Notes: generated from the sequence alone by a model not told the origin. DNA of 51,069 nucleotides from an uncultured Bacilli bacterium (GCA_944372245.1 CALVYN010000004.1:1-51069); one strand, 5' to 3'. Positions 16,932 to 47,486 are shown, counted from the stretch's first letter. Numbers and translations: made by a program.

Positions 16932-18548
16932 CTAGTGCACCTCCGTGAGGTCCTCGACCGTGACGGTCGCAGACAGGGTTGAACCGTCGTTGAGGGTGTC
17001 CTCGTTCAGGAAGAAGTCGGCATACGTGGCGAAGGAGAAGGTGTCGCCCTCGCCGAAGTAGGAGCGGGCGGTCTGGAAGCCGCCGGTGGAGAAGGTGTTC
17101 TTGCCCTCGGCCTCGATCAGGCGGATTTCGTCGTAGGGGAAGACCTCAATGTCGAGGTTGAGGTCGTAGTAGTACTGGTTGTAGTCGACCGAGTTGGTGA
17201 TGGGGAGGATGAAGCCCTCGCCCTCGCTCAGCTCGGTGCCCTGGGCCTCGGTGGTCACATACTGGCGGGCGATCTCGTCGTAGCGGGTCACGAAGCGGCG
17301 GTTGTCGATATGGTAGATGCGCACGCCGGCTCTTTCGGGAGGCAGGGGGCGCTGGGCCACGGGGTACTCCCGGTCGAGAGCGTTGACGCCGGTGGGGGAG
17401 TACAGCTCGATGAGGATGTACTCGCTGAAGGGGTCGAAGACGCCATCCTCGACGGTCTGACCATCGGGCAGGAGGACGATGAAGCTGTTCTCCTGGTCCG
17501 CGGTCAGGGTGATGGTGGCGTCGCCCGAGACTACGTAGGGCTTCTCCCAGCCCAGCAGCATCTTGGTGTAGGCGTTGTGGTCGCCGATGTTGCCATCCAT
17601 CATGTCGACCTTGCCGACGGGGTTGTAGAAGGAGCGGTCGGAGTAGTAGTCGTTCAGGCCGAGGAAGTGGCCGGTCTCGTGGATGTAGGTGTGGGCGTCG
17701 GGATGGTCCTCGTAGGTGTCGTACATGAAGTCGTAGGAGGCCCAGCCGAAGAGGTTGTAGGCGTACTGGTTCAGATCGGGGTTGGGCGTGACCGACTGGT
17801 TGCCCCAGGAGGTGTAGGCCCAGAAGTTCTGGTCGTCGGTCATCGGGCCGTTGCGGCTGTAGTCCTCGGCCGAGTAGATGACCCAGATGCCGTCGTAGAA
17901 GCCATCCTTGTCGCTGTCGAAGTCCCGGCGGGACAAATGGTAGGTCTTGAAGGCCCAGCTGACCGCATCCTGGACTAGGTCGTAGGTCGCATCGATGGTG
18001 ACCTGGGCAGAGGCGGTGATGCCGGAGAGAGAGGCGTCGTACCAGTCGGTCACGGTGCCCGAGAGGCGCAGCTGGCCGTGGGAGGACTCCTCGTAGAAGG
18101 AGGCGACGGAGTGGATGCCCTCGGCGGTCTCCTCGCCGAAGAAGGCCTGCTCGATGTCGCTCTTGACCGCCGCCTGCTTCTCCTCCTGGGAGAGGGTGGC
18201 GGGCAGATCGGCCTCGGCGAAGCTCTTGTAGTCGGGCATCAGCACGGGGATGACCAGCAGGTTGACATCGCCCTTGGAGGGCAGGACCTGGGTGTTGTAG
18301 AAGCGGTCGTCCTCGATGGAGTGGAGGTCGTCGGCCAGGGTCACCTCATCCGGGGAGAGGACCTGTCCGCCCTCGGCTCCATCGATGCGGATGGTGGCTG
18401 AGTCGGCCGTAGGCTGGACGACGCTGCTGGAGGACGACGAGGAGGAAGAGGAGGTGGCGGAGGAGCTGCTGTCACCCTTGCTCGCCTGGCAGGAAGCCAG
18501 AGCCAGAGGCAGGGCCAGCAGCCCGATTAGATAGCTCTTTCGATTCAT
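16932..18548 (-). CDS. M6 family (immune inhibitor A-like) zinc metalloprotease lipoprotein
   Basis: Lipobox LALAS-C, poly-Ser linker, LPSKGDVNLLVIPV, SVASFYEESSHG, DSDKDGFYDG, zinc motif HETGHFLGLNDYY, Met-turn DMMD. Confidence 0.9.
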   Translation of the reverse strand: MNRKSYLIGLLALPLALASCQASKGDSSSSATSSSSSSSSSSVVQPTADSATIRIDGAEGGQVLSPDEVTLADDLHSIEDDRFYNTQVLPSKGDVNLLVIPVLMPDYKSFAEADLPATLSQEEKQAAVKSDIEQAFFGEETAEGIHSVASFYEESSHGQLRLSGTVTDWYDASLSGITASAQVTIDATYDLVQDAVSWAFKTYHLSRRDFDSDKDGFYDGIWVIYSAEDYSRNGPMTDDQNFWAYTSWGNQSVTPNPDLNQYAYNLFGWASYDFMYDTYEDHPDAHTYIHETGHFLGLNDYYSDRSFYNPVGKVDMMDGNIGDHNAYTKMLLGWEKPYVVSGDATITLTADQENSFIVLLPDGQTVEDGVFDPFSEYILIELYSPTGVNALDREYPVAQRPLPPERAGVRIYHIDNRRFVTRYDEIARQYVTTEAQGTELSEGEGFILPITNSVDYNQYYYDLNLDIEVFPYDEIRLIEAEGKNTFSTGGFQTARSYFGEGDTFSFATYADFFLNEDTLNDGSTLSATVTVEDLTEVH

Positions 18549-18555
18549 GATCTGC

Positions 18556-20370
18556 TTACTCCTTCAGAGTGGTCACATCGACGGTGAAGGGGAGGTTCTG
18601 ACCGCCGTTATAGGTGTAGCTGCCGTTGAAGAACTGCATGGCGAAGCCGGCGATGGAGAAGGGCTCGGTCGCGGGGGTGAACAGGGTGTCCTCGGTCATG
18701 GGCTGACCCATCTCGAAGGTGTTCACCCGGGTCGCTTCCAGAAGGCGGAGCTGGTCGAAGCTGTTGAAGCTGATACCCAGCTGCATGCCCAGGCTGGAGT
18801 CGACATCGATGTTGCCGGTGCCGACGGCGTTGGTGATGGGCATGAAGATGGCCTGGTTATTCTCCAGCTGCTCGCCCTCCCAGATGTAGTCCTGGTTGTT
18901 GAACAGGATGTTCTGCTGGCCGGTGATGGTCTCCTGGATCGTGCACTTGAAGATGCGGGAGTCGACGTGGTAGATGCGCACGCCGGTCGCCTCGGGGCCG
19001 GACTGGCGGGCGTTGAGGATATCCTCGCCGATGTCTCTCCCGTTCAGCCCATCGGGGGTGTACAGGTCGATCATGATGTACTCGCTGAAGGGGTTGAACT
19101 CGATCTTGATCTCGTCGGGGTCGTAGCCGTCGTCCAGCTGGGCCTTGACCTGGTCGTTGATCTCCTCGTAGTTCGCGGGGATGACGATGACCTGATGGTC
19201 GTTGACCTGGCTGCCCTGGAGGAGGATCTGGGAGGGACCATAGGCCACGTAGGGGGTGACCCAGCCCAGGACCATCTTGGAGTAGGAGTCCAGGTCGCCG
19301 ACGTTCTGGTCCATCATCGTGAACTGGCCCGCGGGGCGGTAGGTCGCCGAGTCGGTGGCGTAGTAGTCCTCCAGACCCAGGAGGTGTCCGGTCTCGTGGA
19401 TGAAGGTGTGGGAGTCGACGGGAATCGAGGCATAGTCATCCAGATCGGGCACATCGTTGGGCAGCATCTCGCAGTAGCCGGTGTAGAGGGAGGAGAAGGA
19501 GGCCCAGGAGAAGGCCGAGGTGCCGTGGCCCCACTCGATCTGCTCCTGGATGTCCTCCTTGGACTTGTAGGAGTCGTAGTCCCAGGAGGTCATGTTCCAC
19601 CAGGTGTTGTCGATGTCGCTGGTCCCGTCGATCGCGTTCTGGGAGTAGGTGTCCAGCTTGTCGTAGACCAGCCAGATGCCATCGATGTAGCCGTCGGCAT
19701 CGTAGTCGTAGTTATCGAGATCGATGCCCTGAGTATCGACCGCCCAGCCGACCGCGGCGCGCAGGATCTCCTGAATCCCCGCGTTGCGATTGGCGGAGAG
19801 CTGCTCGGTGGACTGGATCGAGGTGTGGGCCGCCACGTCGAACCAGTCGGTGACCTCGCCGCAGAAGTTCAGCTTCCCGAAGGAGGCCTGGCGGTAGTAC
19901 TCCGCGAGGGAGGGATATCCCAGGCGGGCATCGTTCTCGTCGCCGAAGAAGGCGCTCTCGATATCCTGGCGCACCTGCTCGGTGTTATTGGTCTCGCCGG
20001 GCAGGTGGACGGGGATGACAAGCAGGTTGACGTCGCCGATGGAGGGGCAGACGGTCTGGTTGTTGCTGAGGGTGCCAGACAGGGTCTGGTAGGACAGGTT
20101 CACGCTGACGTTGCGAGGGGCGATGTAGCACTCGTCCAGCGCGCTGTCCTCGCTGCGGAAGATGCGGACGGTGGCCGTGCCGTCATCCTCGGCGGTGATT
20201 ACGGGCGCCTCGCCGGTGCTCGAGGAGCTGGACGAGCTGGATGATGAGGAGCTGTCCACCGGGGTGGAGCTGCTGTCGGAGCTGGAGGATCCTTCTCCAG
20301 GGTTGCCCTGACAGCCGACCTGGATCAGGCCGATGGTCGAGAGCAGGAGTGGAAGCAGATTCTTTCTCAT
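18556..20370 (-). CDS. M6 family (immune inhibitor A-like) zinc metalloprotease lipoprotein, paralogue
   Basis: Lipobox IQVG-C, poly-Ser linker, PSIGDVNLLVIPV, SLAEYYRQASFG, DYDADGYIDG, HETGHLLGLEDYY, TMMD. RBS AAGGAG. Confidence 0.9.
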   Translation of the reverse strand: MRKNLLPLLLSTIGLIQVGCQGNPGEGSSSSDSSSTPVDSSSSSSSSSSSSTGEAPVITAEDDGTATVRIFRSEDSALDECYIAPRNVSVNLSYQTLSGTLSNNQTVCPSIGDVNLLVIPVHLPGETNNTEQVRQDIESAFFGDENDARLGYPSLAEYYRQASFGKLNFCGEVTDWFDVAAHTSIQSTEQLSANRNAGIQEILRAAVGWAVDTQGIDLDNYDYDADGYIDGIWLVYDKLDTYSQNAIDGTSDIDNTWWNMTSWDYDSYKSKEDIQEQIEWGHGTSAFSWASFSSLYTGYCEMLPNDVPDLDDYASIPVDSHTFIHETGHLLGLEDYYATDSATYRPAGQFTMMDQNVGDLDSYSKMVLGWVTPYVAYGPSQILLQGSQVNDHQVIVIPANYEEINDQVKAQLDDGYDPDEIKIEFNPFSEYIMIDLYTPDGLNGRDIGEDILNARQSGPEATGVRIYHVDSRIFKCTIQETITGQQNILFNNQDYIWEGEQLENNQAIFMPITNAVGTGNIDVDSSLGMQLGISFNSFDQLRLLEATRVNTFEMGQPMTEDTLFTPATEPFSIAGFAMQFFNGSYTYNGGQNLPFTVDVTTLKE

Positions 20371-26144: not shown

Positions 26145-28910
<2,766 letters not shown>

Positions 28911-28979
28911 TTGATCCTCCTGATGAATCAGCTGTTTACCTACAACAAGCAAAACAAAACTCGCCGTAAGCGCACGCAA

Positions 28980-28988
28980 AGTATAGCA
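28980..28988 (-). promoter_or_regulatory. Extended -10 promoter element for ppdK
   Basis: Minus strand TGcTATACT, ~70 nt upstream of the ppdK start. Confidence 0.5.
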
Positions 28989-29034
28989 CGCGCGGGCGAG
29001 CTTCTCTCTAGGTTGCTAGCGTTGTCTTACAGCC

Positions 29035-30282
29035 TCAATCCAGCACCAGCCGCCCCTTCTGATAGACGGTGCGGGTGCTGCGGTTGCCCAGGGGGTCGAT
29101 GCTCTCGCCGACGATGCACAGGTCGGGAGCGTACACGGGCAGGCTCAGCCGGGTGTAGGCCTGGTTGAGGCCGTGGGAGATGCGCTCGCTCCGGTCCATC
29201 AGCTCGGAGCCGGCCAGGCTGTCGGCGCTGCTCTGGCCCAGGCAGAGGGCGACGGGGCTGGCCATGTTCAGCTCGTTGCACCCCAAACCGGCCAGGCGCT
29301 GCCTGGGACCCGCGGGGAAGGCGGAGATGGTCAGGATGCCGGGCCGCCTGGCCGAGACGTCCTGGATGAAGGCGTTCAGAGCCTCGGCGCCGGTCTCGGC
29401 GGTCGCCTCGACGACCTCGCCGTTTCTGAAGGTCAGCCGCGCGCCGGCGATCCTCTCTCCATAGAGGTATAGGGGCGCGGTGACCGCGAGGACGCCATCG
29501 GTCCCGTGGGAGTGGGTCGAGGTGTAGATCCCGCCCGAGGGGATGTAGCTGACGAAGGTCTCCTGGCGGGTGGTGTCGGTGCGGACGGCCGAGCGCCAGA
29601 AGCCCTTTAAGGGCAGCTGGACGGTCAGGTCGGTGCCGACGCTGGGCACGGTCAGGTGCAGGCGGTAGAGGTTTCTCCGGTTCATCGCCGCCTCGGCCCG
29701 GTCGACCTGGCTGAAGTGGCTCATGATCGCCTCGTCGTTTCTCACCTCGGCCAGTTCGAGGGCGGCAAAGAGCTGCTGCCACATGTGGTCCAGAGCCTGG
29801 GAGGGGGTCAGATCGGGATACATCTCCGCCGCCCAGTCGCGGGTCGGAACGACCGCGCGCACGTGCTTGATCCTATCGGTGGCGTAGGCGAGGAAGTACT
29901 GGTAGGAGTCGGAGAGGGCCTGGAAGGTCGCCATGAGCTTGTTGGGGGAGAAGCGCTTGAGGGAGTGGAAGTCCCTTCCGACCAGATCGACCAGGATCAT
30001 GTTCTCCCGGGCGTAGCCGGCCACCCGCTCGGCCAAGTTGGTCACGGCGGCGGGGATCCTAGTCTCCGGCGTGTTGTTCACCCACTGGCGGGTGATGTCC
30101 TGGTCGTGGTAGACGACCTGGACGCGGCGCACCTTGGCCTTGTAGAGCTCGCCCACGAGGTAGCGGACGAAGACGCTCATATCCACATCAGCGTAGATGA
30201 CGACGTCCTGCCGCAAGACCGAATGCATGCCCACCTCGATGAGGAAGTCGGCATATCTCTTCATCATCCTGACCTTTTGCAC
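29035..30282 (-). CDS. M29 (AmpS/PepS/AmpT-like) aminopeptidase homologue lacking metal ligands
   Basis: N-terminus KRYADFLIEVG...ELYKAKVRRVQVVYHDQDITR and overall length match M29; catalytic motifs are degenerate. GTG start with GGAGG RBS. Confidence 0.8.
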   Translation of the reverse strand: MQKVRMMKRYADFLIEVGMHSVLRQDVVIYADVDMSVFVRYLVGELYKAKVRRVQVVYHDQDITRQWVNNTPETRIPAAVTNLAERVAGYARENMILVDLVGRDFHSLKRFSPNKLMATFQALSDSYQYFLAYATDRIKHVRAVVPTRDWAAEMYPDLTPSQALDHMWQQLFAALELAEVRNDEAIMSHFSQVDRAEAAMNRRNLYRLHLTVPSVGTDLTVQLPLKGFWRSAVRTDTTRQETFVSYIPSGGIYTSTHSHGTDGVLAVTAPLYLYGERIAGARLTFRNGEVVEATAETGAEALNAFIQDVSARRPGILTISAFPAGPRQRLAGLGCNELNMASPVALCLGQSSADSLAGSELMDRSERISHGLNQAYTRLSLPVYAPDLCIVGESIDPLGNRSTRTVYQKGRLVLD

Positions 30283-30413
30283 TGCGGTTTCCTCCAGCTC
30301 TTGGCAACGGAGGGCTCACCCCTATCCACCGGGCGTGGAAGATGGAGCCCAATGAAATGTTTTTGGCTTTTGGTTTAGGATAACCGAAAATAGATTGTTT
30401 TTGGGAGGTTTTT

Positions 30414-31274
30414 ATGCTGACAGCTACCCTAAACCTTACTTCCGGGCTCGTTTCCAACCCTGGAGAAGGTGTAAATCTCAATCTGGACTGGCCCGCCGAC
30501 CGTCCCGTCCCTCTCGCCCAGCTCGACGAGCTGGCCAGCCAGCTGCGCCAGCAGGGCGTCACCGACCTGGTCGCCATCGGTGCCCACATCCAGATCGAGG
30601 AGGCCAAGGCCGTGGCCCTGGGCCTGCGCTACGCCGGCCCTCTGGCCGACCTGGCCAAGGCCAAGGTCGAACCCTACTCGGCCGCAAATCTCTCGGTCGT
30701 CCTGGCCGGCACCTGCGGCGGGAGCGAGCTGATCCCCCAGTGCTCCTTCTTCGATTCCGAGAGGGGCTTCCTCCGCAGCGTGAGGATGCCCAGATGCGAT
30801 ATCACCTATATTGACCGTGCGGAGCTGAATGCGGCCGTCGGCACCGGCTTCTCCTGCCTCATCCGCCTTTTAGAGCTCTCCGTCGCTCCGGGTGTGCCCG
30901 CCGGCCTTAGAGCCTGCTCGCGCGCCCTCTTTGACCAGGGGGCCATGGGGACTCTCGCGCTGGATGAGGTGGCCTGGCAGGGGGCCAACCTCATCGGGCT
31001 GATTCACCGCCTGAGCCGGCCCCAGCTCCCTCTGACCTACATCGCTCAGATCGCCGCGGCCAAGGGCCGGGAGGGCAACCTCGATGCGGCCTACCTCCTC
31101 GCGGCCCAGCTCCTCTTTTCCGAAGATGCTTCCACCCTGACTGAGATCGCCCAGAGGGCTGGGGTCAGACCTTTGAAACTGACCCCGGCGAGCGAAAAGC
31201 AGATCGTAGATAAGGTAGCGGGGCTTCGTCTGTCTTATACTCTTAACCCGCTAGGAGGAAAACTTCATGGCTGA
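30414..31274 (+). CDS. Degenerate iron-containing alcohol dehydrogenase-fold protein
   Basis: LRQQGVTDLVAIGAHIQIEEAKAVALG, LAGTCGGSE, TYIDRAE and TGFSCLIRLLE follow the order of Fe-ADH motifs (GGGS.ID.AK, PTTAGTGSE, I.DP.L, TG.DA..H..E). RBS GGAGG. Confidence 0.6.
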   Translation: MLTATLNLTSGLVSNPGEGVNLNLDWPADRPVPLAQLDELASQLRQQGVTDLVAIGAHIQIEEAKAVALGLRYAGPLADLAKAKVEPYSAANLSVVLAGTCGGSELIPQCSFFDSERGFLRSVRMPRCDITYIDRAELNAAVGTGFSCLIRLLELSVAPGVPAGLRACSRALFDQGAMGTLALDEVAWQGANLIGLIHRLSRPQLPLTYIAQIAAAKGREGNLDAAYLLAAQLLFSEDASTLTEIAQRAGVRPLKLTPASEKQIVDKVAGLRLSYTLNPLGGKLHG

Positions 31275-32529
31275 AAACGAACAGCGCCCGGAAGTGTCCA
31301 CCACCGGCTCGACCCAGACCGGCGTGGGCACTCCCTCCAAGAGAGCCGTCCAGATGATCGACGAGATGAAGAAGCCGACCAAGCCGCTCCCCATCCTCAA
31401 GAAGAACTGGGCCTGGCCTTTCTTCATCCTCGTGATGGGCTTCATCGTGGGTATCGCGGTGGGCTCGATGCAGGATGGCATCGTCAGCGACAACTCGACT
31501 GCGGCCTCCCGCGTCGGCTTCCTCATCGCCGTCTTCTTCCTCGGCTCGCTCCTGGGTGTCATCGTCTACAACATCGGCAAGACGATCGGCGCCTACCTGG
31601 CGGGCTACCGCCTGTCCTATCTGTGCATCTCCGGCGTGTGCTGGGATGCTTCCCGCCCTGCGAAGCGGCTCTACTTCGACGGATCCCAGTTCCTAGAGAT
31701 CCACTCCCGCTATGCGCCCAAGGACGATGACCTGAACCGCAACCCCATCGCGATGTTCCTGGGCGGCTTCGCCTTCTGGGCGATCGTCTTCGCCGTCGTG
31801 ATGGCTGTCGCCTTCACCGCCGTCCCCAGCCAGTCGATCGTCCGCTCCGGCATGATCTGGGGCGCGGCCTTCTCCGGCGACTACATCATCTACCAGCTCT
31901 GCCCCTTCCGTCAGGACTACGCCGCCGACATGTTCTCCCTGGTCTCCACCCGCAACGCTGAGGACCGCCGGGCCTTCAACCTCTACTACTACAACCGCGG
32001 CAACGAGTTCGCCGACAGGGAGATGCTGGTCCCCGACTTCACCGCCTACGACAGCTATTGGAAGGCCAAGACGATGATCTACCTCTTCCGCAGCCACCTC
32101 TACACCAAGGGCGAGATCGACCAGGCCCTGGAGACCTTCCCCCGCATCCACGAGGTCAGCGCCTACCTCAACGACGAGGAGAAGGCCCAGGTCGCCGGCG
32201 AGCGCATCTTCGTCCTGCTCCTGCTGAACGACCGCGCGGGCGCGGACAACCTCTTCATCGAGCTGTCCAAGACCGTCAAGGGCGAGGTCATCCGCGGCAA
32301 CAACCTCGGCTCGATGCGCACCGCCCTGCTGGTCTCCGGTGCCATCGTCGGCCGCGAGGACACCACCGTGGACAACGTCAAGTCCATGAAGGCTCTGATG
32401 GTCAAGAACCCCACCTCCCACAAGCTCCAGACCGAGCAGTCCTACTACCGCCTGGCCTACGCCAAGGTCAAGGAGATCAAGCCCGGCTTCAACCTCCCCG
32501 CCCTGCCCGAGGCGGCCGAGCAGAACTGA
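31267..32529 (+). CDS. Membrane protein resembling M50 (site-2 protease) family without HExxH, with a C-terminal helical domain
   Basis: Four or more TM segments; VIVYNIGKTIGAYLAGYRL sits at the HExxH position; MFLGG and QLCPFRQDYAAD match the ..GG.. and NxxP..DG positions. RBS AGGAGG; 8-nt overlap with the upstream gene. Confidence 0.7.
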   Translation: MAENEQRPEVSTTGSTQTGVGTPSKRAVQMIDEMKKPTKPLPILKKNWAWPFFILVMGFIVGIAVGSMQDGIVSDNSTAASRVGFLIAVFFLGSLLGVIVYNIGKTIGAYLAGYRLSYLCISGVCWDASRPAKRLYFDGSQFLEIHSRYAPKDDDLNRNPIAMFLGGFAFWAIVFAVVMAVAFTAVPSQSIVRSGMIWGAAFSGDYIIYQLCPFRQDYAADMFSLVSTRNAEDRRAFNLYYYNRGNEFADREMLVPDFTAYDSYWKAKTMIYLFRSHLYTKGEIDQALETFPRIHEVSAYLNDEEKAQVAGERIFVLLLLNDRAGADNLFIELSKTVKGEVIRGNNLGSMRTALLVSGAIVGREDTTVDNVKSMKALMVKNPTSHKLQTEQSYYRLAYAKVKEIKPGFNLPALPEAAEQN

Positions 32530-32549
32530 TAGGCTCTAAACCAAGTTAC

Positions 32550-32586
32550 AAAAAGTGCTGCCCACCATTCGGTGGGCAGCATTTTT
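32550..32586 (+). terminator. Rho-independent terminator
   Basis: TGCTGCCCACC-attc-GGTGGGCAGCA followed by TTTTT. Confidence 0.85.
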
Positions 32587-32747
32587 ATGAAGAAAATTCT
32601 TGCGGGATACACTTATGGATGACATATATTCCCTCTCTTCACACTGTCTGAGAGGCACGAGTCTCAAAATGTTGCACAAGCTGATCAGAGAGGGTTTGAG
32701 GGATTATCGAACAGGAGCCACGCCTCTCTCATCCAGGTTAATTTATG

Positions 32748-32777
32748 TTGAAACAATAATGCGCGTAGGGATAAAAT
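32748..32777 (+). promoter_or_regulatory. Putative sigma-A promoter of yebC
   Basis: TTGAAA-18 nt-TAAAAT, ~60 nt upstream of the ATG. Confidence 0.5.
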
Positions 32778-32839
32778 ACCGCCTGCACTCTGCGTATCGT
32801 TTTTGCGCGCAGCAGTAATAAATAGAGAGGTATATCGGC

Positions 32840-33586
32840 ATGGGAAGAGCACATGAGGTTCGCGCCAAGAAGATGGCCGCGACCAACGCCGCGAAGTCGG
32901 CGCTTTACAACCGCGCCAGCAAGGAGATCTACCTTGCGGCCAAGTCTGGTGTCCCCGACCCCAACTCCAACCTCTCGCTGAGAGCGGCAATCGAGAAGTT
33001 CAAGGGCCAGGGTGTCACCCGTGACGTCATCGACCGCGCCATCAAGAAGGCGGCCGGCGGCGACGCCACCACCTACATCTCCGGTCGCTATGAGGGCTTC
33101 GGCCCCGGCAGTGTCGCTATCATCGTCGACACCCTAGCCGATAACGACAAGAGAGCCTTCGCGTCCGTGCGCGCCGTCTTCAACCACAAGGGCGGCCACA
33201 TCGGCAACACCGGCTCGGTCATGTTCCTGTTCAAGGAGCTGGGCGACTTCATCTTCGAGGCCAAGCCCGAGGACCAGGAGAACATCGAGATGGCTCTGAT
33301 CGAGGCCGACATCGAGGAGACCGCCACCTACAACGAGGAGGACGGCACCCTCGAGATCACTGTCGACCGCAAGGACTTCGCCAAGGCTCACGACATCATC
33401 CAGAGCCAGGGCGTGACTGAGTTCCTCAAGTCGGAGATCGCCTGGGTTCCCAACGAGAAGAAGCACCTCGAGGGCGAGGATAAGCGGAAGCTGATCAACT
33501 TCGTCAACGAGCTGAACAAGATCGAGGACGTGCAGAACGTCTACACCGACGCCGACTTCGACCCCAACAACGAGGACGCTGAGTAG
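32840..33586 (+). CDS. yebC: YebC/PmpR family protein
   Basis: MGRAHEVR, GVPDPNSNLSLR, YEGFGPGSVAIIVDTL.DN, GSVMFLF, EDVQNVYTD. Confidence 0.95.
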   Translation: MGRAHEVRAKKMAATNAAKSALYNRASKEIYLAAKSGVPDPNSNLSLRAAIEKFKGQGVTRDVIDRAIKKAAGGDATTYISGRYEGFGPGSVAIIVDTLADNDKRAFASVRAVFNHKGGHIGNTGSVMFLFKELGDFIFEAKPEDQENIEMALIEADIEETATYNEEDGTLEITVDRKDFAKAHDIIQSQGVTEFLKSEIAWVPNEKKHLEGEDKRKLINFVNELNKIEDVQNVYTDADFDPNNEDAE

Positions 33587-45458: not shown

Positions 45459-47486
45459 TCAGGAGTTCGTCCGCGTCAGCGTACGCCTCCTATTATCCGT
45501 TTTTTTGCTGGGCTCGGGTGCATAATCGCCATCGTTGAGCACGGCGATCAGCTGCTGCTTGACCGCCTCCAGGTCGGTCGAGACGACGGTGGCCGCGGCC
45601 GAGGAGAAGTGGCCGCCGCCCCCGAAGGCCTTGACGATCTTCTCGACGTTGAACTTGGGGTTGGAGCGGGCCGAGATGCCGATCTTCTCGGGCGAGATGC
45701 GCCCGATGGCGAAGGCGGCATCGTTGCCGGCGATGGTCATCGCCTGGCTGGCCACCATGGCCAGCATCGTGGTATCGACGATCTCGTCGGAATCGGGATC
45801 GACCGCGATGCAGATGTTCTCGGCGTAGTTGGAGGCGTTCTTGAGGAACTTGATCTTGGTCTTGAACTGCTCGTAGTTCTCGCGGGTCATCGAGGTCGCC
45901 ACCTTGGGCGAGGCCCGGCGGTTGAGCAGGTAGGACATGGCCTTGTAGGTGGGCTCGGCCACCTTGGAGCGGAAGCGGGTCGTGTCCACCATGGTGCCGG
46001 CCAGCATCATCGTGGCCGCCCCGTCGATCATGTTGATGGGGATGGGCGAGGCCTCGATGTATTCCGCCAGGAGCTCGCAGGCCGAGGAGGCCGAGGAGTC
46101 AGAGCCGTTGAAGACCACGTGCTTGAAGGTGCGCTCGGACTGGCGGTGGTGGTCGATCAGGGCGACCCGGACGTCGGAGTCGTAGCTGATGAAGTTGGGG
46201 TAGACCAGCCGCTCGGGGGCGGAGACGTCCACCAGGACCACCAGGGTCTTCGAGCTGATGGCATCGAGGGCGTCCGCGCAGTCGATGGTCAGCTCGTCGA
46301 GGTGGTCGCGATACTGGTCCTCGAAGGCCTTGCGGCACTCCTGTTCGGTGTTCTCGGGCACGTAGACGATGCGGCACTTCACCCCGAGGGTGTTGCAGAT
46401 GCTCTTGACGCCCAGGCAGGCGCCGATGCTGTCGAAGTCGGCGTAGGTGTGGCCCATGGTCAGGACCAGCTCCGACTCTTGGATGGCGGCGATCAGCTCC
46501 TTGGACAGCAGCCTGATGCGGGCGCGGTTGATCGTGGCCTTGGACTCGGTGGTGCCGCCGACGTATCTGGCCGCCTTGCCGAACTCGCTGATCAGGGCCT
46601 GGTCGCCGCCGCGGGCACCGGCCAGCTCGACGTTGCTGTAGGCTTCCTCGCAGGCCGAGGCCAGGTCGGGGAAATTTCTTGCAACTCCAACGGAGATGGT
46701 CGAGATGGAATTATTCATCTCGCGCACCTCGCGCACGATGGAGAGCTCGTTGTCGACCTGCTCCAGGGGCTGGTCGTTCTCGCCGATGATGATGTAGGTA
46801 TCATCGCGCACGGAGCGGATGACGTAGCGGCCCTCGCCGATGCCGTAGAGGGTGGTGGACAGCTGGTTCATCCACTTGGCGACCGCCACCTCGCCCACGG
46901 CGGTGATGCGGTCGGCGTAGTTGTCCACGCGGGCGAAGGCGACGAAGGGGGCCGCGTTGCGATAGTCCCGCTGCCGCCCTCTGAGCTCGGACTCATCCTT
47001 GAGGATGAAGAGCCCGGCGCTCTTGACCAGCTCGACATCGAAGCTGTGGTTGTTGAAGTCGATCCGGTTGTTGGTGATGCCGGACTCGAACATGGTGCCC
47101 AGCTGGGGCGTGACCTCTCCGATGGGCTTCTCCAGGGCGGCCACCCCGACCTTGGCCATGTAGTCGCTCTGATAGGTGACGATCCCCTTCTCGTCCACCA
47201 GGATCAGACCCACGCGGCAGCGCTCCAGGGCGTGGCTGATCTGGGGGCCGTAGACGTCGGTCAGGCTCATGTCGCCCGCATCGGAGACGTGGCGGATGCG
47301 CCAGTAGAAGAACCAGCCCGTCAGCAGGGTGGCTAAGACTAGGCTCAGCCCCACGGCCAGACCGACGGCCCAGTAGTAGTCGAAGGGGACCAGCAGGATG
47401 CAGACCAGGATGACTATGGCGGCGACGGCGGAGATGCCGCACAGGATGCCGGCGGCGGTCACCATTCTCTTGGCTATCTTGTTCAC
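45459..47486 (-). CDS. gdpP: c-di-AMP phosphodiesterase GdpP (2 TM, PAS-like, degenerate GGDEF, DHH/DHHA1)
   Basis: RGGDQ, MGHTYADFDSIGA, LVDV, IDHHR, ASSACEL, GTMVDT, ISARS, FGGGGHFSSAA; canonical gdpP-rplI-dnaB synteny. GTG start. Confidence 0.93.
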   Translation of the reverse strand: MNKIAKRMVTAAGILCGISAVAAIVILVCILLVPFDYYWAVGLAVGLSLVLATLLTGWFFYWRIRHVSDAGDMSLTDVYGPQISHALERCRVGLILVDEKGIVTYQSDYMAKVGVAALEKPIGEVTPQLGTMFESGITNNRIDFNNHSFDVELVKSAGLFILKDESELRGRQRDYRNAAPFVAFARVDNYADRITAVGEVAVAKWMNQLSTTLYGIGEGRYVIRSVRDDTYIIIGENDQPLEQVDNELSIVREVREMNNSISTISVGVARNFPDLASACEEAYSNVELAGARGGDQALISEFGKAARYVGGTTESKATINRARIRLLSKELIAAIQESELVLTMGHTYADFDSIGACLGVKSICNTLGVKCRIVYVPENTEQECRKAFEDQYRDHLDELTIDCADALDAISSKTLVVLVDVSAPERLVYPNFISYDSDVRVALIDHHRQSERTFKHVVFNGSDSSASSACELLAEYIEASPIPINMIDGAATMMLAGTMVDTTRFRSKVAEPTYKAMSYLLNRRASPKVATSMTRENYEQFKTKIKFLKNASNYAENICIAVDPDSDEIVDTTMLAMVASQAMTIAGNDAAFAIGRISPEKIGISARSNPKFNVEKIVKAFGGGGHFSSAAATVVSTDLEAVKQQLIAVLNDGDYAPEPSKKTDNRRRTLTRTNS

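Follow-up and report, generated by a model that had tools for sequence, protein, structure and literature searches.

Pseudoenzymes, intramembrane pseudoproteases included, are an established category, which to our knowledge is well studied in eukaryotic signalling and poorly charted in bacteria. The literature describes two relevant examples: iRhoms, whose catalytic residues have been lost and whose intramembrane-protease fold has long been conserved (PMC3149277, PMC5106787), and EGY3, a plant pseudoprotease of the site-2 protease (S2P) type that lacks the HExxH motif and stabilises other proteins (PMC10978774). M29 aminopeptidases have EEHYHD as their common catalytic set (PMC7023490). A literature search for M29 aminopeptidase pseudoenzymes found none, and one that paired iron-containing alcohol dehydrogenases (Fe-ADHs) with pseudoenzymes found only work on microcompartment loci. 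Here we describe three adjacent genes, at positions 29035-32529 of a 51,069-nucleotide stretch of DNA (hereafter the window) from an uncultured Bacilli bacterium (GCA_944372245.1 CALVYN010000004.1:1-51069), each of which resembles a different metalloenzyme and appears to have lost its active site.

The window is contig C4 of a 1.12-Mb genome in 61 contigs that is about 90% complete and has 60% GC; near-identical DNA is present in sequencing runs labelled chicken gut, bird or plain metagenome, and the organism may belong to the GTDB order RF39. The locus has the following parts.

29035-30282, minus strand: gene 1, 415 residues, GTG start; putative M29-family pseudo-aminopeptidase
30283-30413, no strand: divergent intergenic region of 131 bp, with the ribosome-binding sites of genes 1 and 2 and strain-variable single-base indels
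30414-31274, plus strand: gene 2, 286 residues; truncated YqhD/BdhA-type Fe-ADH homologue, stripped of site residues
31267-32529, plus strand: gene 3, 420 residues; M50 (S2P)-like membrane protein with a C-terminal tetratricopeptide repeat (TPR)-like domain
31411-31896, plus strand: membrane core of gene 3, residues about 49-210 (from model secondary structure, VIA-align and motif alignments)
31903-31929, plus strand: PFRQD..D motif of gene 3, residues 213-221
31948-32526, plus strand: TPR-like helical-repeat domain of gene 3, residues about 228-420 (from VIA-align and Atlas matches)

With moderate confidence, we regard the three genes as translated, selectively kept, non-catalytic descendants of three metalloenzymes that lie in an inherited neighbourhood and have binding or structural roles. 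The layout given in a preliminary description of the window is borne out by the open reading frame (ORF) calls and the sequence: three adjacent intact ORFs, a divergent gap, an overlap of 8 nt between the stop of gene 2 and the start of gene 3, and good ribosome-binding sites. The Shine-Dalgarno-like sequences GGAGG, GGGAGG and AGGAGG precede the starts of genes 1, 2 and 3, respectively, the last of them located within the 3' end of gene 2. The same description had assigned the genes to the M29, Fe-ADH and M50 families and had taken each to lack its metal-binding residues; these assignments held up, with one His column in gene 2 and one Asp ligand in gene 3 nevertheless kept.

Gene 3 can be compared with the described pseudoproteases. 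It lacks HExxH, as EGY3 does, and like iRhoms and other pseudoenzymes that act as regulators or scaffolds, it joins loss of the site with long conservation of an intramembrane-protease fold. EGY3 is a plant protein whereas gene 3 is bacterial; iRhoms have another fold and belong to another domain of life.

An M29 homologue without the catalytic residues

Gene 1 matched the Pfam model Peptidase_M29 (PF02073) with E 3.2e-58 and 197.9 bits (cut-off 27) over profile positions 4-404 of 406. It agrees in length with the solved M29 aminopeptidases AmpS (1ZJC), AmpT (2AYI) and PepS (4ICQ) and is homologous to them over its full length (E 2e-28 to 9e-26). Unlike them, it has none of the six EEHYHD residues: in alignments to these three enzymes and to canonical relatives, the positions are occupied by G, I, A, S, R and S. 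The regions concerned read PTEEV, LGEVAL, CHLALG..Y and HVD in the canonical relatives and PSGGI, PGILTI, VALCLG..S and RLS in gene 1. Since all six residues are missing, gene 1 would be a homologue of the M29 family and not a functional member of it.

The three other members of the genus keep one, two or none of the catalytic residues, and the loss is a mosaic, with the second Glu kept in one species and one His plus the Asp in another. This pattern fits relaxation after one ancestral inactivation. Gene 1 is the only M29 match in its own genome, where a search for an active paralogue, as the preliminary description had suggested, found none; a scan of the genome contig collection with gene 1 also gave no match. 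Both its gene neighbourhood and its place in the tree identify it as orthologous to the family's canonical M29. In a quick IQ-TREE reconstruction of 36 proteins (L033, L060, L061, L065 and L102-L104 were left out as duplicates or near-copies), the four genus proteins formed one clade (SH-aLRT 100) nested within the canonical M29s of the same family (100). The branches of this clade are several-fold longer than those of the canonical enzymes: in substitutions per site, its tips have lengths of 0.51-1.19 where the median tip is 0.24, and its stem is 1.22.

The clade has also acquired features of its own. In the alignment of the four proteins 78 of 407 columns are fixed, and 15 of those differ from the canonical state; the motifs NTPxT (positions 70-74) and HSHG (257-260) are new and fixed in all four species. 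The first 70 residues are better conserved than in canonical M29s (56% against 50%); the half that was once catalytic is less so (32-40%, canonical 53%). We suggest that gene 1 may serve in binding or assembly, mainly through its well-kept N-terminal domain. The two fixed motifs could also be taken as signs that the protein is still an enzyme through other residues or a different chemistry, an explanation that might extend to any of the three proteins. Here it is opposed by the complete loss of the catalytic residues, and by the fact that the lost set differs between species; we return to it with the evidence from genes 2 and 3.

A truncated Fe-ADH homologue

Gene 2 passed no NCBIfam or Pfam cut-off (Pfam Fe-ADH, E 0.003). 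A word-index search returned one protein, 98% identical, and HMMER over 1.84 billion representatives returned five at E <= 0.001, three of which are 33-36% identical and 279-284 residues long. Its assignment comes from synteny, an intermediate form and the modelled fold. Gene 2 is the positional orthologue of full-length Fe-ADH genes: of 20 loci taken from three families of the order, 18 have an Fe-ADH gene on the strand of the gene 3 homologue and directly upstream of it, with gaps or overlaps of -29 to +130 nt. Outside the genus of the window, the Fe-ADH ORFs at this position encode 359-429 residues. All ten that we scanned exceed the Pfam cut-offs for both Fe-ADH domains, their best NCBIfam match being a YqhD-type model, below its equivalog cut-off, and one matches the butanol dehydrogenase TM0820 (1VLJ) at E 3e-71. 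The homologues in the four genus members have 286, 289, 308 and 275 residues, and the 308-residue protein still matches Fe-ADH at E 1.5e-12. The model of gene 2, with a predicted local distance difference test score (pLDDT) of 75.5, gave Foldseek matches to YugJ, BdhA and YqhD at E ~1e-9.

Gene 2 thus resembles Fe-ADHs of the YqhD/BdhA/YugJ type in position, in modelled fold and in a retained block after the GGGS position, and differs from them in a shorter N-terminus and in its site residues. Compared with the full enzymes it is shorter by about 100 residues, and some 60 residues at the beginning of the fold, where the nucleotide-binding domain starts, are absent. We located the motif columns by conservation in an alignment of the family (A3) and by alignment to 1VLJ, taking GGGS to be the nucleotide-binding motif and an Asp/His/His/His set to be the metal site. 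In gene 2, GAHI stands in place of GGGS, the Asp-His pair of D..H has become R and E, and the last His is A, so that three of four ligands are lost. The fourth column (the first His of HxxEH) is His in the window species only and not in its genus relatives. All positional Fe-ADHs outside the genus keep GGGS and the four ligand columns.

The retained His is a second point in favour of residual enzyme activity, to be set against the absence of part of the nucleotide-binding domain and of GGGS, and against the lack of conservation of this His in the genus. What the genus does conserve lies elsewhere. The four proteins are 14-38% identical by alignment, and they share the invariant residues K65, Y73, D79, P87, G103, E105 and P126 and the block AKA..L.LRYAGPLSD..K.KV.PYSA; residues 56-110 form a conserved patch. 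Among the NCBIfam matches of relatives is ErcA ('alcohol dehydrogenase-like regulatory protein'), which we take, by its name, as a sign that annotators assign non-enzymatic roles to the Fe-ADH fold, and as no more than that.

An M50-like membrane protein with an eroded zinc site

Pfam gave nothing meaningful for gene 3 and ten relatives. Its AlphaFold model, built from an 11-sequence alignment, has a pLDDT of 85.3 and a predicted TM-score of 0.84, and consists of a core with four membrane helices and a beta-hairpin region (residues ~49-210) followed by helical repeats (~221-404). VIA-align matched residues 78-237 to S2Ps with Z values that are not decisive alone: RseP 7w6z 8.1, SpoIVFB 8vjl 7.7, RseP 9j83 7.0 and MjS2P 3b4r 6.1 (rank 23). 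Foldseek of the model against the PDB gave no match at E <= 0.001, with MjS2P at rank 18 (E 0.9), and a profile of 19 members of the family (A4) gave only weak TPR-like rows and no S2P among PDB sequences. In the ESM Atlas, residues 40-235 fall with Peptidase_M50 clusters (score 0.94, 202 shared features, 22 of 30 hits), and structure matches of this part have TM 0.67-0.82.

Profile A4 was also searched against 265 Bacilli genomes outside the order, and found homologues in 12 of them (E 1e-8 to 1e-26). All ten that we fetched carry HExGH and N..P...ND(G/A) at aligned places, and all ten match PF02163 at E <= 4e-4, four of them over the curated cut-off. The lines of evidence for M50 are individually of moderate strength and concordant. 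At the place of HExxH, gene 3 has YNIGK (residues 101-105). None of the 19 family members examined from the order has a complete HExxH: family f3 has xExxH (5 of 5), f7 has YE..K/R or YQ..K (4 of 4), and f1 has Y[NG]..K (9 of 10) plus one WF..K. The Asp of the LDG-type motif, D221, which corresponds to the third zinc ligand and aligns with NDG/LDG of the HExGH-bearing homologues, is invariant in all 19, and the Gly after it is lost in f1. These gradations point to an ancient pseudoprotease whose HExxH would have been eroded stepwise within the order. At another place, the genome also encodes an RseP-like M50 of canonical type (HEAGH, NLLPIPGLDG), a paralogue with its motifs in place.

The invariance of D221 and the ExxH kept in f3 are further points in favour of continued enzymatic function, with the retained Asp plus Lys/Tyr as a possible site. 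In f1, however, N, G or F stands where HExxH has its catalytic Glu. Taking the three proteins together, we consider it quite unlikely that one or more of them is still an enzyme by such means.

Members of the gene 3 family are ~330-430 residues long and combine the M50 membrane domain with the TPR-like domain. The core is similar to that of the M50 S2Ps RseP, SpoIVFB and MjS2P, and the protein differs from them in having the TPR-like domain in place of PDZ or CBS. The eroded form is bacterial and confined to three families of one order. VIA-align matched the C-terminal half to ComR, Rap, Rgg and other TPR proteins with Z 7.0-7.5, and Atlas structure matches to TPR clusters had TM 0.52-0.60. 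We rejected a more specific assignment of this domain as an RRNPP-type peptide receptor, because its Z values are the same as those of generic TPR matches and the two are not distinguishable. From the four helices and the Lys-rich N-terminus, the TPR-like domain is predicted to be cytoplasmic. Matches of the family include records titled Bacillales bacterium UBA6449, Clostridium sp. CAG:568, uncultured Mollicutes bacterium and Bacilli bacterium; a scan of metagenome contigs with gene 3 gave 126 pattern matches with no relative among them.

An inherited neighbourhood with inactivations of different depth

The genes flanking the locus are as follows.

26145-28979, minus strand: pyruvate phosphate dikinase (PPDK), on the gene 1 side
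32840-33586, plus strand: YebC, on the gene 3 side

The three other genus members have the same succession of genes, namely PPDK, M29 (-), Fe-ADH (+), gene 3 (+), YebC. In the member with 39% GC, an additional 189-residue ORF (L024:4438-5007, plus strand) lies between the M29-like and the truncated Fe-ADH-like gene. An M29 gene adjoins the Fe-ADH/gene 3 pair in 7 of the 20 loci and, by coordinates, in at least ten more genomes (G132, G099, G059, G182, G198, G023, G002, G119, G032 and G086) that belong to five genera of f1 and two of f7. Synteny in relatives, which had been proposed as a check, is therefore conserved, most widely for the Fe-ADH/gene 3 pair. The M29 gene is located elsewhere in the genome in genus g7 and in family f3, and none of the ten HExGH homologues outside the order has an Fe-ADH neighbour. 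At one of those ten loci an M29 gene (L141:3842-5083, plus strand) directly follows the HExGH homologue (L141:2309-3292, plus strand), which echoes the linkage seen within the order.

We counted the three genes in 201 sampled genomes of the order, from eight families. The gene 3 family is present in 144 of them (62 of 66 in f1, 53 of 65 in f3, 28 of 31 in f7 and 0 of 38 in the five other families). M29 is present in 174, nearly all outside the genus scoring E ~1e-130 to 1e-171, against 1e-58 to 1e-92 in all four genus genomes. Elsewhere in the order, M29 scores were low for two partial matches, near 1e-17, and for a subfamily of short proteins in f2, near 1e-50. The f2 proteins (L101-L105) have ~368-391 residues and are very divergent, and the ligands checked are all kept. 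They were considered as a second dead lineage and rejected on this ground; weak scores alone therefore do not mark dead enzymes. A YqhD-type Fe-ADH at E <= 1e-50 is present in 152 of the 201 genomes and in none of the four of the window's genus. Strict co-occurrence of Fe-ADH and gene 3 was another candidate that we rejected, since Fe-ADH at this threshold occurs in f4, f5, f6 and f8 without gene 3.

Site loss in M29 and Fe-ADH is apparently confined to this genus, where it affects all four species, and would have happened once in each case, in the genus ancestor. For Fe-ADH, a FastTree of 19 proteins placed the four genus proteins on one side of a branch (97), with a long-branch warning. Judged by the residues, the inactivations are of different depth: the M50-like gene early, order-wide and stepwise, M29 and Fe-ADH at the level of the genus. 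Because the corresponding positions in relatives are taken by M29 and Fe-ADH genes with complete sites, the neighbourhood predates the inactivations and was not assembled from pseudoenzymes. The pseudoenzyme module that the preliminary description offered as an example is not supported as a purpose-built unit: the gene order is inherited, catalytically complete M29 and Fe-ADH orthologues stand in the corresponding places, and the losses are of different depth.

Selection and decay

All three frames are intact in all four genus species, although GC at these loci ranges from 39% to about 62%. The chance of such stop-free frames is 2e-4 to 4e-6 in the window and 1e-8 to 9e-13 in the 39% GC relative. 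Compared with the nearest species, the proteins of genes 1 and 2 are 43% and 36-38% identical (35-43% in blastp, E 4e-124 and 6e-42), and 58-69% of fourfold sites in these genes differ, which is near saturation. The non-synonymous divergence (dN, Nei-Gojobori) is 0.61 for gene 1 and 0.71 for gene 2; PPDK has 0.075, and YebC and a deoxyribosyltransferase lie at 0.12-0.15. The ratio of non-synonymous to synonymous divergence by the same method (NG86 omega) is 0.64, 0.58 and 0.25 for genes 1, 2 and 3; owing to the fourfold saturation, the values for genes 1 and 2 are upper bounds. In the dN/dS comparison that had been called for, omega thus lies below 1 in each gene, while for genes 1 and 2 it is high and comes from a method that saturates.

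Strains offer a second view. We compared contigs of four runs from four studies, which are ~1.5-1.9% divergent. Indels between them lie only between genes (30354, 30359, 30366, 32816 and 33616), apart from one 12-nt in-frame deletion in PPDK, and none lies in genes 1-3. The PPDK deletion, at 26177, affects a Lys/Ala-rich C-terminal tail; the single-base indels at 30354, 30359 and 30366 fall in T/A tracts of the divergent gap (runs X8, X2 and X3). The single-nucleotide polymorphisms (SNPs) considered are the 40 listed of 197 differing positions, selected by support. Their synonymous to non-synonymous counts are 4:3 in gene 1, 6:2 in gene 2, 6:0 in gene 3, 8:0 in YebC and 1:4 in PPDK. For genes 1 and 2 pooled, 5 of 15 are non-synonymous, against a fraction of 0.74 expected under neutrality (one-sided p 0.001). 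Genes 1 and 2 appear to have evolved several-fold faster since inactivation, yet under purifying selection.

These data bear on the possibility that genes 1 and 2 are pseudogenes decaying slowly in a shrinking genome, their frames open by chance or because deletion is slow. The genome is small, dN is high with omega ~0.6, ligand loss is a mosaic, gene 2 has shrunk from ~360-400 to 275-308 residues, and long spurious ORFs are common at this 60% GC. Decay is nevertheless hard to square with frames that are open in four of four species, including the one at 39% GC (no-stop chance 1e-8 to 1e-12), with proteins that still align at 35-43% despite the fourfold difference, with indels that avoid the genes, with SNPs that are mainly third-position and synonymous, or with the fixed motifs that the dead M29 clade has of its own. 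We consider it very unlikely. Repurposing rather than decay, as originally proposed, fits the intact frames, the strain indels outside genes 1-3 and the excess of synonymous SNPs.

A narrower version applies to gene 2, which might be kept mainly as a translated leader for gene 3, with selection on the frame and not on the protein. Consistent with this are the 8-nt overlap, the AGGAGG inside the end of gene 2, the close same-strand arrangement in 18 of 20 loci, and the fact that dN is higher in gene 2 than in the rest of the locus and that the gene has been progressively shortened. Against it, a protein-level signal persists in the seven invariant residues, the conserved block and the 6:2 SNP ratio, and genes 2 and 3 are 40-60 nt apart in most loci, so that coupling through an overlap is not general. 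On balance a leader function of this kind seems rather unlikely to be the main reason for its retention. With their sites lost and their frames kept by selection, the three genes probably serve non-enzymatic functions.

A tendency of the lineage

The preliminary description had suggested a lineage-wide tendency towards pseudoenzymes on the strength of a GdpP paralogue in the window. Two genes, this paralogue itself and an AdhE, agree with the suggestion.

L042:79-2676 on contig C3 of the same genome, plus strand: AdhE, 865 residues; the only other Fe-ADH match in the genome
47483-49687, minus strand: GdpP paralogue, colinear with the canonical GdpP at 45459-47486 (minus strand); 21% identity, E 1e-37

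In AdhE, comparison with a solved AdhE and with relatives shows the alcohol dehydrogenase half with GGDD in place of GGGS and with the D..H and His columns replaced, and the aldehyde dehydrogenase half well conserved. The motif loss recurs in all three genus genomes in which AdhE was found, and the motifs are kept in two sister-genus genomes. One other genus genome also lacks the Cys of the aldehyde dehydrogenase ICASEQ motif, and AdhE was not found in the fourth genus genome, which is 87% complete. AdhE had been a candidate for an active Fe-ADH paralogue and was rejected because its alcohol dehydrogenase half has lost the motifs in the genus; no intact iron-ADH site was found in the genome of the window. 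The genus thus seems to have given up iron-ADH chemistry, so far as the residues tell, while keeping both proteins.

The GdpP paralogue has KGR where GdpP has DHH and no recognisable DHH/DHHA1 motifs. Among 41 genomes of the family, only this one and its nearest relative have two tandem copies. By these features the paralogue is a predicted pseudoenzyme derived by duplication.

The AdhE result also bears on a further explanation, that the three proteins of the locus would form one membrane-anchored, non-catalytic complex that senses or holds peptides or metabolites. The linkage of M29, Fe-ADH and M50/TPR is conserved in two families, with M29 beside the HExxH-bearing homologue at one of the ten outside loci, proteins or peptides are typical ligands of a TPR-like fold, and it was within a single genus that both gene 1 and gene 2 lost activity. 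Other observations run the opposite way: M29 lies elsewhere in g7 and f3, Fe-ADH occurs without gene 3 in other families, and AdhE lost the same residues in the same genus, which makes the loss of Fe-ADH chemistry genome-wide, and not local, in cause. A complex of all three proteins is, in our estimate, distinctly improbable. The broader proposal is that the genus turned the sole orthologues of several core metalloenzymes (M29, both iron-ADHs and, in one sublineage, a duplicated GdpP) into conserved non-catalytic proteins, and that the M29-like and Fe-ADH-like proteins work with the M50/TPR protein as a membrane-anchored sensing or scaffold assembly. This, too, we think rather improbable.

Other features of the locus

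One further feature lies directly 3' of gene 3.

32556-32581, no strand: GC-rich hairpin with an 11-bp stem, terminator-like (consensus scan)

This annotation is weak because the scan puts the hairpin on the minus strand and the overall hairpin count is not above the shuffled expectation. A simple scan of the 131-bp gap found no sigma-70-like consensus. The Rfam scan of 28900-32900 gave nothing but a sub-threshold CRISPR-repeat match, with no match in the gap. Elsewhere in the window, the adjacent ORFs 16932-18548 and 18556-20370 (both minus strand) gave weak matches to Peptidase_M6 (immune inhibitor A) at E 4e-6 and 5e-7.

Discussion

Our reading of the locus, in which three metalloenzyme descendants have been kept by selection for binding or structural roles, has to be held against several observations that weaken it. 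We infer inactivity from missing residues only. The M50 assignment of gene 3 combines middling Z values, language-model features and transitive profile hits, with no direct match in Pfam or among PDB sequences, and the alignment from which the gene 2 model was built contained true Fe-ADHs. Between species, omega is high, about 0.6, by a saturating method, and the strain SNPs form a small, incomplete sample (40 of 197). Among 235 ORF pairs of this genome and its nearest relative (median identity 62%), gene 1 lies at about the 10th percentile and gene 2 at about the 5th, which makes them fast and not extreme; apparently functional mevalonate-pathway kinases are 44-57% identical, and GC drift within the genus (39-62% at the same locus) inflates amino-acid divergence genome-wide. 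Finally, the presence of Fe-ADH in families without gene 3 means that their pairing is not obligatory.

If three non-catalytic descendants are what the locus encodes, the following roles may be sketched, each of them tentative and clearly less secure than the general reading. Gene 3 would be a membrane-anchored, probably cytoplasm-facing TPR binding or scaffold protein on a dead S2P core, comparable in principle to EGY3. Gene 2, which would be co-transcribed and probably translationally coupled with gene 3, may be a cytoplasmic partner of the M50/TPR protein and may have been retained because it still has a function tied to gene 3. By descent, genes 1 and 2 are the sole orthologues of a housekeeping M29 aminopeptidase and a YqhD/BdhA-type aldehyde reductase, respectively.

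What appears to be new is an order-wide bacterial family of S2P-like pseudoproteases, together with dead M29 and Fe-ADH orthologues that selection seems to have kept at the level of a genus. The M50/TPR family is widespread in gut Bacilli, has no Pfam model that detects it and is unannotated. An automated pipeline would label gene 1 as 'aminopeptidase' and genes 2 and 3 as 'hypothetical protein', and the species would be given, in metabolic models, activities that are almost certainly absent. The locus separates cleanly in time the order-wide, stepwise erosion of the M50 zinc site from two genus-level inactivations of sole orthologues, and active orthologues at the same positions in sister genera provide natural controls. 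It thereby poses a testable question, namely why a 1.1-Mb genome that is otherwise shedding genes retains an M29 and an Fe-ADH that are both dead, along with an M50/TPR pseudoprotease. Should the three-protein sensing or scaffold assembly prove true, it would be a bacterial analogue of iRhom- and EGY3-type pseudoprotease biology, made from three dead enzymes.

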